Below are positions 39,741 through 41,144 of a DNA stretch of 64,000 nucleotides, one piece after another. Each line of letters opens with the position of its first letter. The first letter of the stretch is position 1. Source of the stretch: an uncultured Planctomycetaceae bacterium (GTDB lineage Bacteria; Planctomycetota; Planctomycetia; Planctomycetales; Planctomycetaceae); the NCBI GenBank assembly GCA_963813715.1, contig CAWFAK010000017.1, positions 736,001-800,000 of the forward strand, given 5' to 3'. A program made the position numbers and the translations under genes. The notes beneath the pieces are model-generated. The model did no database searches and had not been told where the DNA came from. It worked only from the letters and a program-made list of their open reading frames with translations.

Positions 39741-39774
39741 CCCTCACCCCGGCCCTTGTATGTTGAAAAAAGGT

Positions 39775-39995
39775 CGAATCTGCGCATTTGATGGGGACAG
39801 CTGTGGGAAAGCTTGCGAAGCGTAGCGAAGCAAGGTTTCCCACAGCGGCCGGCGGTAGATCGTCCGCCCTCAGGTCCAAGAAGACCGTGGGAGAGCTGGA
39901 TCGCCGCCGGTCTCATGAGATCAGCCCGAACAGCCGTCAGAGCCGTCGGGGCGCCAGTCGCCGCTCGAGCTCGCATTCGCAAGGACGGGACATCG
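39775..39995 (+). ncRNA. putative IS110 bridge RNA (5' hairpin, target-binding loop, donor-binding loop)
   Basis: Hairpin 39800-39846; loop 2 guides GTCCGCCCT (39862-70) and TGGGAGAG (39888-95) match the target; loop 3 guides ACAGCCG (39930-36) and CAAG (39980-83) match the donor junction; ends approximate. Confidence 0.8.
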
Positions 39996-39997
39996 TC

Positions 39998-40950
39998 ATG
40001 GACGTCGCCTTCAAATCGTTCGTCGGTATCGACATCGCCAAACGGACCCTCGACGTGCACGTGCTGCCTGAGCGAACGTCGCTCAAGCAGCAAAACGATT
40101 CCAAGGGCCGACGGCAACTCCGAGAGAAGCTTCCTCCTCCCGGAGAGTGTTTGATCGTCGTCGAAGCCACCGGCGGTTACGAGCGGGCCCTCGTCGCCGA
40201 ACTGATCGACGCGGGCTATCAGGTCGCGGTCGTCAATCCCCGGCAAGCCCGGGACTTCGCCAAAGCCTGCGGAATCGTCGCCAAGACCGATCGCATCGAC
40301 GCGGCCGTGCTGGCACGCTTCGGCCAGGCAGTCGAGCTGCGGACCCAGGCCAAAATCCCGGAAAAACAGCTCGAACTGCAAGACCTCGTCGCCCGGCGCC
40401 GGCAGCTGGTCGAGCTGCGAACCGCCGAAATGAACCGCAAGGAAAACGTCGCCAGCAAGTTCGTTAAAAAGAGCCTTCAGGAGAGCGTCGACGCGCTCAA
40501 CAAGCAGATCCGACGCTTCGAGAAGCGAATCGCCGCGCTGGTCCAATCGGACGACGAGTGGAAACAGAAGGCCGAGATCGTTCAAGCGCGCCGGGGATTG
40601 GACCGGGCACGAGTGCCACCCTGATCGCCGAGGTCCCCGAGTTGGGGCAGCTGAGTCGACGAAAAATCTCCGCACTGGTCGGCCTGGCCCCCTTCAATCG
40701 CGACAGCGGCGAGTTCCGGGGACGCTGCGCGATCCGCGGCGGACGAAGTTCGGTGCGCTGTAGCCTGTACATGGCGACGCTCAGCGCACGACGCTCCAAC
40801 CCAGTCATCAGAGCCTTCTCGGATCGCCTGAAAGCCCTCGGCAAAAAGCCCAAGGTCATCATCACCGCCTGCATGCGCAAGCTGCTGGTGATCCTCAACA
40901 CGATGGTCAAAAACAAAACGCACTGGAACCCTGCAATCTCAACCACTTAA
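39998..40950 (+). CDS. IS110 DEDD recombinase/transposase (frameshift about 40590)
   Basis: [24 protein letters not shown] (D-E-D-D); [15 protein letters not shown] (catalytic Ser), ACMRKLL. Confidence 0.95.
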
Positions 40951-41144
40951 CTCTTGAAAAGAAACACAGCCGCTCTCCCAGCAGATTGGGCGAGGGTGAA
41001 ACTGGCGGGACGGGACTCATTTGCAGCGGGGCGGGACAAGTTGACGGGACCGCAATGTGTCCCATGTTAATGTCGCTTGGCAAAAAGACTTAGGAGAAGC
41101 ACCGGACGGGACGGGACACGTGCTACTGATAGAACCGACGCGGG

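Follow-up and report, generated by a model that had tools for sequence, protein, structure and literature searches.

The insertion sequence IS621 of Escherichia coli (Durrant et al. 2024, Hiraizumi et al. 2024) belongs to the IS110 group, and the mechanism class that it represents has already been published, solved structurally, used as a tool, and named in an NCBI annotation model. In this work, we describe an IS621-like element at positions 39755-40974 of a 64,000-nucleotide (nt) stretch of DNA, hereafter the window, from an uncultured Planctomycetaceae bacterium (GenBank assembly GCA_963813715.1, contig CAWFAK010000017.1, positions 736,001 to 800,000). According to the available text of PMC11208158, the target loop of the IS621 bridge RNA is composed of a stem, a 3-nt linker, a 9-nt left guide, a 1-nt linker, and a stem-loop, followed on the 3' side by a GU linker, a right guide of 3 + 4 nt, and a 2-nt handshake guide. 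The donor loop described there contains a left donor guide of 8 nt, together with a right donor guide, AU/CAAG, from which two or three bases are flipped out (A157-U158 / C162-G165). In the accessible part of PMC11208160, the IS621 loop is reported to encode ATCGGGCCTAC while 74.5% of the insertion sites are ATCAGGCCTAC, and a natural mismatch between the left guide and the usual target is tolerated. Insertion into extragenic palindromes is already known from IS621 and from other members of the IS110 family. A set of 5,511 RNA-target pairs was used by Durrant et al., and many orthologues have been catalogued. A junction-spanning promoter arrangement is described for IS621 in what was available of both reports (PMC11208158, PMC11208160), and the abstract of a preprint reports half-match insertion for IS621.

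The planctomycete element is very probably a copy of an insertion sequence of the IS110 group with an IS621-like mode of action. An RNA-guided IS110 recombinase system had been proposed at this position in a first-pass annotation made from the sequence alone, and this core proposal is supported by the match of the protein to NCBIfam model NF033542, by covarying stems in the left-end RNA, and by the covariation of guides with insertion-site flanks. Membership of the protein family, the RNA fold, the correspondence between guides and flanks, the copy number, and the site preference were all observed directly. The copy in the window has intact ends and intact guides, and its recombinase gene is split.

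By analogy with IS621, transcription, circle formation, the chemistry of recombination, and mobilization in trans would proceed as follows. The element would be excised as a circle, and the 317-residue DEDD/Ser recombinase would bind the bridge RNA. Base pairing is predicted between the first internal loop and the target CCCGGCC-CT-CTCCCA, where the bottom strand would be read by the left guide and the top strand by the right guide, and between the second loop and the circle junction ACAGCCG-CT-TGTAT. Strand exchange at the CT core would then leave the inserted element flanked by CT. The target in this genome is the 5' arm of a hairpin repeat, of which there are dozens of copies. The coordinates of the individual features are collected in Table 1.

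Boundaries and Genomic Copies

The element was found to be 1220 base pairs (bp) long with a CT dinucleotide at both ends. A search of the genome from which the window derives (7.49 Mb in 18 contigs, 63.2% G+C) returned nine copies, 94-100% identical and each aligned over 1-1220. The similarity of all nine copies ends exactly outside the two CT dinucleotides, which had been named in the first-pass annotation as the core. The empty target and the donor junction that it had written out were likewise located in the sequence at every coordinate and in every string. The right flank is CTCCC(A/G) in all nine copies, such that each of them lies at CT-CTCCC, a site related to the guides described below. 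The left flanks all end in C|CT and were determined to be CCCGGCC (three copies), CCCGACC (two), CCGGCCC (two), CCCCGAC (one), and CCGTCCC (one). Among the relatives, the start CTTGTAT is common to 13 of the 15 aligned left ends.

Four public runs (shares of 0.26-0.35), all available as contigs in which uncovered parts are uninformative, were also inspected. One contig from a public RNA library joins position 39754 to position 40973 with 1218 bases skipped and two ambiguous, which corresponds to the empty-site form; it may represent a related locus because the metagenome match is at 90% likeness. In a 1478-base contig of another public run, the complete element is flanked by the two halves of another copy of the hairpin repeat. 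The boundaries of the element are real and not the product of chance.

Two pairs of copies lie close together in the same orientation. The pair at C16:500666-503780 (L002/L003) is separated by approximately 680 bp and the pair at C5:1206700-1209468 (L007/L009) by approximately 330 bp. In the latter, two guide variants are adjacent, one of the window type and one of the L009 type.

Target Guides

The first-pass annotation had recognized an exact 8-nt reverse complement of the core and the right target half in the first internal loop, and this right target guide is present. It matches CT-CTCCC at 7/7 positions in all nine copies, and its eighth position pairs with A in six copies and wobbles with G in three. 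The register is that of IS621, namely a GU linker and then 7 nt. Across the relatives, the guide is 7 nt long and ends in AG, with no exception to this AG among the 15 rows of alignment A2.

The covariation of guides with flanks in homologous elements, which had been suggested as a check, was then determined. For the relatives, the left boundary was placed at the conserved start, CTT(G/A)T..., and the right boundary by a rule that requires a TTGA-type box, the four conserved bases that open the end, and CT. Since the right rule uses only the box, these four conserved bases, and CT, the variable bases played no part in the placement of the boundaries. For the 22 distinct pairs of right guide and flank, the five noncore positions agree at 5/5 in 14 pairs and at 4/5 in four; the remaining pairs agree at 3/5 (one), 2/5 (one), and 0/5 (two). 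The sum is 91/110, compared with 39.1 ± 5.7 when the flanks are permuted, and 0/10000 permutations reach the observed value. A single base change is followed on both sides: L024 and L050, which are close relatives, and L057, which is 66% identical, carry GGGUGAG in place of GGGAGAG and were inserted at CT-CACCC, not CT-CTCCC. Relatives with other flanks carry guides that are altered accordingly.

A left target guide identical to CCCGGCC-CT at six of nine positions, with one further wobble, had also been proposed. The match is present with one U-G wobble and with GCCCU as the only contiguous stretch; taken alone, it is indistinguishable from the C-rich background, and the left guide can be read only in part. 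In the register of the first-pass annotation, the window-type guide matches at 4/7 noncore positions. At the level of the family, the left guide was found to covary with its target. When 0-2 linker bases are allowed, the identity over 42 distinct loop-flank pairs is 199/294, compared with 141.4 ± 6.7 after permutation (0/5000 permutations), and only one of the 37 distinct left flanks gives the window-type loop a better fit than its own flank does. The linker before the inner stem is absent in L018, where 9/9 positions pair, two of them as wobbles, and is one base in L019 and L025; against relatives like L018, the register of the first-pass annotation is displaced by 1-2 nt. The ...CU-CA layout is retained in L055 and L057, and their own-flank matches were judged by eye to be 6/9 and 7/9, respectively. 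Within this clade, the fifth guide position is G with GGCC and A with TACC, so that in L055 the guide A tracks the flank A. The sister types L009 and L012 have CCCC-GA in place of CCCU-CA, yet they occupy the same sites. A left guide exists in the family, and in the window copy it appears short and loosely matched, with a register that the sequence does not fix. A single-nucleotide bulge model, UCCG^CCCU against CCCG[G/A]CCCT, was tried by eye and rejected; it fits 5/9 copies and fails for CCGGCCC, CCCCGAC, and CCGTCCC.

Donor Guides and Handshake Positions

Both donor guides named in the first-pass annotation, ACAGCCG with 7/7 matches to the right end of the element and CAAG, are present in the second loop, in agreement with the donor-guide arrangement expected of a bridge RNA. 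Ten distinct pairs of left donor guide and element end were compared across the relatives; the guide equals the terminal seven bases in seven of them and matches at 6/7 in one and at 4/7 in two. The two pairs at 4/7 belong to L090 and L082, the same doubtful loci that fail in the right-guide comparison. The eighth position of the left donor guide is U in the window copy and C in close relatives, and a wobble with the core is still possible. The C at position 39896 complements the G at donor position 7 but not the C at target position 7, and the G at position 39984 complements the C at target position 7. By analogy, these presumed handshake positions fit the rule described for IS621.

Structure of the Left-End RNA

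The layout that had been drawn for the noncoding left end, a 5' hairpin followed by two stems with large internal loops, was recovered on folding. The sequence 39795-39995 folded alone gave -93.8 kcal/mol with z = -4.06, and 0/200 shuffled sequences were as low. The predicted fold contains the 5' hairpin and a long stem enclosing an internal loop, and overall it consists of the 5' hairpin and two internal-loop modules. Two compensatory pairs are found in the 5' hairpin of copies L006 and L008, where T-A is changed to C-G and A-T to G-C. On the 5' side, the target loop reads GUCCGCCCUCA, and after the inner hairpin it continues with GU, GGGAGAG, and CU. The order in the donor loop is CCCG-A, ACAGCCGU, CA, the inner stem, GC, AU-UCG-CAAG, GA, and CGGG. 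These modules fit the published IS621 scheme one by one, as the first-pass annotation had anticipated.

Relatives of the protein were gathered from species genomes (37 loci) and metagenomes (59 loci). RNAalifold applied to 15 left ends predicted the stems of the target loop and the inner stem of the donor loop, with compensatory changes at 17/26 pairs. It also paired columns 1-5 of the left end with the CAAG segment in 14/15 rows, which is the complementarity between guide and donor showing through. In the MAFFT alignments A1-A3, the donor loop was misplaced in the rows from Cupriavidus and Vampirovibrio, and these were realigned with a covariance model; the L028-type rows remained misaligned at the 3' side. 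Covariance model R1 was built from 12 sequences with a structure of 28 pairs set by hand. It places the RNA directly upstream of the open reading frame (ORF) in 59 of the 62 sources searched; of the remaining three, two have insufficient DNA upstream and one is a relative with 32% identity. Four Cupriavidus loci outside the seed were recovered with E = 3e-8 to 9e-11, and in the planctomycete genome R1 returned exactly the nine copies.

In alignment A5, which holds 50 distinct sequences, 24/28 stem pairs are changed on both sides. Compensatory changes were counted at 13/14 outer-stem and 4/4 inner-stem pairs of the target loop and at 2/4 outer and 5/6 inner pairs of the donor loop. Paired cells amount to 95.1%, compared with 75.5% in shuffles (0/500 reach the observed value) and with 46.2% or less after the partners are shifted by 1-3 columns. 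The alignment was fitted to the model, a procedure that biases these values toward the structure.

In the Rfam scan, RF02234 (sX15, a small RNA of Xanthomonadaceae) gave a weak full-length match on the minus strand at 39833-39985, with 24.6 bits against a gathering threshold of 55 and E = 0.2. This match was judged to be due to chance because sX15 on pXCV183 precedes an IS3-family transposase and not an IS110 transposase.

A different left end was observed at locus L017, whose protein is 85% identical. This locus has the usual right end and the target ACAGCCG|CT|CACCCC. In the 300 bases before the ORF (L017:1200-1500), neither the usual element start nor the motifs of the bridge RNA were found; this segment looks like a different sequence rich in palindromes, as if the left end had been replaced.

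Recombinase

The intact protein P0001, taken from copy L005, has 317 residues and matches NF033542, "IS110 family RNA-guided transposase," with 225.6 bits against a cutoff of 140. It aligns with the solved IS621 transposase over residues 8-307 (E = 1.8e-42, 148.9 bits), and its best sequence match in the PDB is the ISCro4 transposase 9t56 (E = 1.7e-42, residues 7-307). Residues D12, E56, D98, D101, and S237 of P0001 align with D11, E60, D102, D105, and S241 of IS621, respectively, where chain residues 13, 62, 104, 107, and 243 were converted by assuming a PDB offset of two residues. The DEDD and catalytic serine motifs reported in the first-pass annotation therefore hold in full for the intact copies, in which all five residues align; in the window copy, they are divided between two different frames.

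As assembled, the window copy cannot encode the full recombinase: its first stop is encountered after 208 codons, short of full length. The A that it lacks corresponds to column 832 of the nine-copy alignment, near position 40583, and contigs of all four public runs carry an extra A after this position. The uninterrupted frame of 317 codons is found in three of the nine copies (L005, L006, and L008). Because the one-base deletion splits the recombinase, the window copy would move only if one of these three supplied the protein in trans, and mobilization of this kind may occur. The indels may be true decay or polishing errors in a multicopy repeat, and for the window copy an assembly error is possible.

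Target Repeat

The insertion site lies within the repeat (G)CCCTCACCCC(G/A)(G/A)CC-CT-CTCCC, which continues with a short loop and then GGG(A/C)GAGGG. The core CT is situated in the 5' arm of a hairpin (CCCTCTCCC... / ...GGGAGAGGG), and the right guide has the sequence of the 3' arm because the core lies in the 5' arm. The first-pass annotation had suggested retargeting to a different repeat family, and the target is indeed a repeat: CACCCCGGCCCTCTCCC occurs 13 times empty in the planctomycete genome, compared with about 0 expected. A looser pattern listed 58 empty sites, of which approximately 35 are clearly units of the hairpin repeat CCCTCACCCC...CT-CTCCC...GGG(A/C)GAGGG. Copy L005 occupies a site that lacks the usual left half of the repeat, and copy L007 a site that lacks a visible 3' hairpin arm.

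The unit interrupted in the window is the third in a tandem array (39263-39760) with a spacing of approximately 236 bp. Each array unit is composed of a CCCTCACCCC...CTCTCCC...GGGCGAGGG hairpin, a GGGACGGGACACGTTGTTT motif (six copies; 38987-39712), and a 63-nt block. The same motifs flank many other copies of the hairpin throughout the genome.

Promoter Elements

When the two ends are joined in silico, the right-end and left-end hexamers form TTGAAA-17 nt-TATGTT, which agrees with the consensus at 9/12 positions and includes A2 and T6 of the second hexamer; planctomycete promoters may differ from this consensus. A scan of the integrated element for sigma-70-like promoters returned none that passes. 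A weaker internal pair, TTGAAA at 39763 and TTTGAT at 39787 with 18 nt between them, would start an RNA at the 5' hairpin, as judged from the match to consensus only. A TTGA(C/A) box was seen by eye in the right end of most relatives, within the 130 bases that follow the ORF.

Table 1. Positions in the Window of the Ends, Guides, RNA Modules, Coding Frames, and Promoter-like Hexamers of the Element
Feature	Position	Strand	Description or basis
Left target half, CCCGGCC	39748..39754	+	part of the interrupted hairpin repeat
Left CT core	39755..39756	.	start of 9/9 copies; 2-base ambiguity at the joint in the empty-site contig
Noncoding left end, 241 nt	39757..39997	+	contains the bridge RNA; starts with TGTATG, the right donor half
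-10-like hexamer, TATGTT	39759..39764	+	consensus match; usable only with the right-end -35 after circularization
5' stem-loop of the bridge RNA	39800..39846	+	arms GCTGTGGGAAA (39800-10) / TTTCCCACAGC (39836-46)
Target-binding loop module	39847..39912	+	outer stem GGCCGGCGGU-A-GAUC / GAUC-GCCGCCGGUC with bulged A; inner hairpin GGUC-CAAGAA-GACC
Candidate left target guide, GUCCGCCCU, then CA linker	39862..39870	+	string GTCCGCCCT; register uncertain by 1-2 nt
Right target guide, UGGGAGAG	39888..39895	+	reverse complement of CT-CTCCCA; string TGGGAGAG; core-pairing AG at 39894-95
Presumed target-loop handshake guide, CU	39896..39897	+	analogy with IS621 nt 81-82
Donor-binding loop module	39925..39989	+	outer stem CCCG/CGGG; inner stem GAGCCG...CG-A-GCUC
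Left donor guide, ACAGCCGU	39930..39937	+	ACAGCCG at 39930-36 equals the right end ACAGCCG, 7/7
Right donor guide, AU-UCG-CAAG	39975..39983	+	CAAG (39980-83) pairs with CTTG and AU with AT of CT-TGTAT; discontiguous
Presumed donor-loop handshake guide, GA	39984..39985	+	analogy with IS621 nt 166-167
N-terminal frame, RuvC-like DEDD domain	39998..40624	+	Pfam PF01548 (DEDD_Tnp_IS110), E = 7.4e-28; alignment to IS621
Catalytic codons in N-terminal frame	D12 40031-33, E56 40163-65, D98 40289-91, D101 40298-300	+	
C-terminal frame, Tnp domain	40558..40950	+	Pfam PF02371 (Transposase_20), E = 5.4e-16; alignment to IS621 S241
Frameshift site	40581..40583	+	A-run one A shorter than in the other 8 copies
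Catalytic Ser codon AGC; stop TAA	40705-07; 40948-50	+	
-35-like hexamer in right end, TTGAAA	40954..40959	+	consensus match
Left donor half, ACAGCCG	40966..40972	+	right end of the element; identical in 9/9 copies
Right CT core	40973..40974	.	CT on both sides of 9/9 copies
Right target half, CTCCCA, then loop and 3' arm of the hairpin repeat	40975..40996	+	right flank CTCCCA at 40975-80; 3' arm GGGCGAGGG at 40988-96

Alternative Explanations

Several results weigh against an IS621-like mode of action for this element. The Rfam scan (E ≤ 10) returned no bridge-RNA family and nothing beyond noise on the plus strand. The natural left flanks vary, with five different 7-mers in nine copies, and the 6/9 match of the left guide is obtained in a register that requires a 2-nt linker, compared with 1 nt in IS621. 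In a sliding 9-mer test with wobbles allowed, the left guide scored 7 with its own target and up to 8 with those of other lineages; this test fails to tell own from foreign targets in C/U-rich sequence and was replaced by the register-limited permutation test. A motif rule was used to place the right boundaries of single-copy relatives, and two of the 22 flank pairs (L090 and L082) fail completely; the boundaries assigned to these two are probably wrong because the donor end fails there as well. Six of the nine copies are frameshifted, by different small indels. The contigs of two public RNA libraries contain the element but also its flanks and give no transcript start, strand, or level, and they may be DNA. 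Finally, no joint between the two ends, as expected of a circle junction, was seen in the contigs of the four public runs, a form of data that drops rare forms.

In one alternative, the structured left end would be only a leader or promoter region of the transposase gene, the protein alone would pick the target, and the matches between loops and flanks would be coincidences in C-rich DNA. The public-run contigs yielded no RNA evidence and the left-guide match alone is not above background, as this explanation would have it, and yet it is already contradicted: the right and donor guides covary with their partners across lineages with unrelated targets, the single-base guide change tracks the single-base target change in L024, L050, and L057, and the protein passes the model for RNA-guided transposases. 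We regard it as extremely improbable. A bridge-RNA element in which RNA hardly reads the left half of the target is a more serious, if still unlikely, candidate. Site choice would then depend on the right guide (7-8 nt) and the core, together with one or two neighboring C; the repeat hairpin or a slipped C-run pairing might help, and GUCCGCCCU would be a decayed or slipped guide. The invariant CTCCC on the right of 9/9 copies beside the five left 7-mers, the L005 site without the usual left repeat half, the 4/7 noncore matches of the window-type guide, and the persistence of the same sites in L009 and L012 after CCCU had become CCCC are all in its favor, as are the added specificity from a target stem-loop described in the available text on ISPpu10 (10.64898/2026.03.19.712850) and the half-match insertion of IS621 in the preprint abstract. 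It is opposed by the family-level covariation of the left guide with the left target half (0/5000 permutations), by the finding that 1/37 distinct left target halves fits the window-type loop better than its own, by the fifth guide position that tracks the target within the clade (G with GGCC; A with TACC in L055), and by the L007 site without a visible 3' hairpin arm. A further point against it is that IS621 itself, in what is available of PMC11208160, tolerates a natural left-guide mismatch. The broader form of this idea is somewhat more doubtful still, namely that the whole clade with C-rich targets, the planctomycete elements together with their Cupriavidus relatives, is naturally asymmetric. 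In that clade, a 7-8 nt right guide, a copy of the 3' arm of the hairpin, would read the target almost entirely by invading the 5' arm, and a left guide slipped or decayed in the C-run would contribute 3-5 base pairs. If correct, this would be a natural "half-match" or structure-assisted mode of targeting and a lead for bridge RNAs with one dominant guide.

A separate question is whether the window copy is really broken. The frameshifts in this copy and in five others could be errors of assembly or polishing, in which case the window copy would be intact and autonomous. Multicopy repeats are error-prone in long-read assemblies. This genome is in 18 contigs, six of the nine copies carry different small indels while substitutions reach only 3-6%, and the extra A is present in all four public runs. 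Against this, the runs are other samples and other copies and are therefore silent on the window locus; a related genome has mostly intact copies and one shifted copy, and decayed insertion sequence copies are common. We consider assembly error the less likely source of the frameshifts. The IS621-like reading of the element as a whole remains the preferred one.

Significance

The element is a well-resolved natural example from a little-studied phylum, with nine mapped copies and approximately 35 empty sites in one genome. Dozens of relatives have guides and flanks that can be read side by side, and this should be useful for the comparison of guide length and register across IS110. The element opens no new question. 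For annotation, it accounts for an interrupted tandem array of intergenic repeats and for split transposase ORFs. In the literature searched, no paper joining IS110, Planctomycet*, and "bridge RNA" was found; this orthologue may already be listed in the orthologue tables of Durrant et al.

Other IS110 Elements in the Genome

Two further IS110-family elements were observed in the same genome. The second element has 3-4 copies (C12:9688-10675, C12:90577-91564, C7:224535-225522, and C7:435709-436695). In three of them, the NF033542 match breaks at one and the same profile position (1-216, then 219-343), and the geometry is identical; they may represent either a broken element that was amplified recently or a deliberate frameshift. 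The R1 search of this genome gave no match to the copies of the second element. The third element has four intact copies (C5:1485897-1486883, C5:644154-645140, C7:43038-44024, and C8:46508-47494) with open frames of 353-367 residues that score 210-223 bits against NF033542. It presumably has a divergent bridge RNA because the R1 search gave no match there either.

Comparison with Known Systems

The comparison with IS621 is drawn from the available text of the two reports cited above. The two elements share the fold family of the protein and its five catalytic residues, and a left-end RNA with a 5' hairpin and two internal-loop modules (PMC11208158). They also have in common the CG(U) linker before the left guide, the GU linker followed by a 7-nt extended right guide, the 8-nt left donor guide, the discontiguous right donor guide AU...CAAG, the presumed handshake positions, and the CT core. 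Donor positions 8-14 of IS621 have the same sequence as the right donor half, CT-TGTAT (PMC11208158), and both elements insert into a repeated extragenic palindrome (PMC11208160). The IS621 donor had been given in the first-pass annotation as ACAGTAT-CT-TGTAT; positions 6-14 of this string were confirmed from residue names, while the full string was not located in the text that was available.

Several features differ. The planctomycete protein is a distant relative of the IS621 transposase, as judged from the 148.9-bit alignment over residues 8-307. The target of IS621 is ATCAGGC-CT-AC, whereas the planctomycete element targets CCCGGCC-CT-CTCCCA within a planctomycete repeat. In their natural form, the right guides are 4 nt long in IS621 and 7-8 nt long here, and the left guide fits less well, with apparently two linker nucleotides before the inner stem compared with one. 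The left donor half is ACAGCCG, whereas donor positions 6-7 of IS621 are AT (PMC11208158). The 5' hairpin of the planctomycete element, unlike that of IS621, begins 45 nt into the left end.

Two other systems are of relevance. The ISCro4 transposase (PDB 9t56), a name taken from the molecule label of the depositors, is the best match to the planctomycete protein among the PDB sequences. In the accessible text on ISPpu10 from Pseudomonas putida (10.64898/2026.03.19.712850), all insertions lie in copies of one conserved intergenic repeat with a GC-rich stem-loop, and the planctomycete copies are likewise found in or beside a hairpin repeat. For ISPpu10, the stem-loop is described as a 5' extension of the target, whereas in the planctomycete element the hairpin is located on the right (3') side, with the core in its 5' arm.

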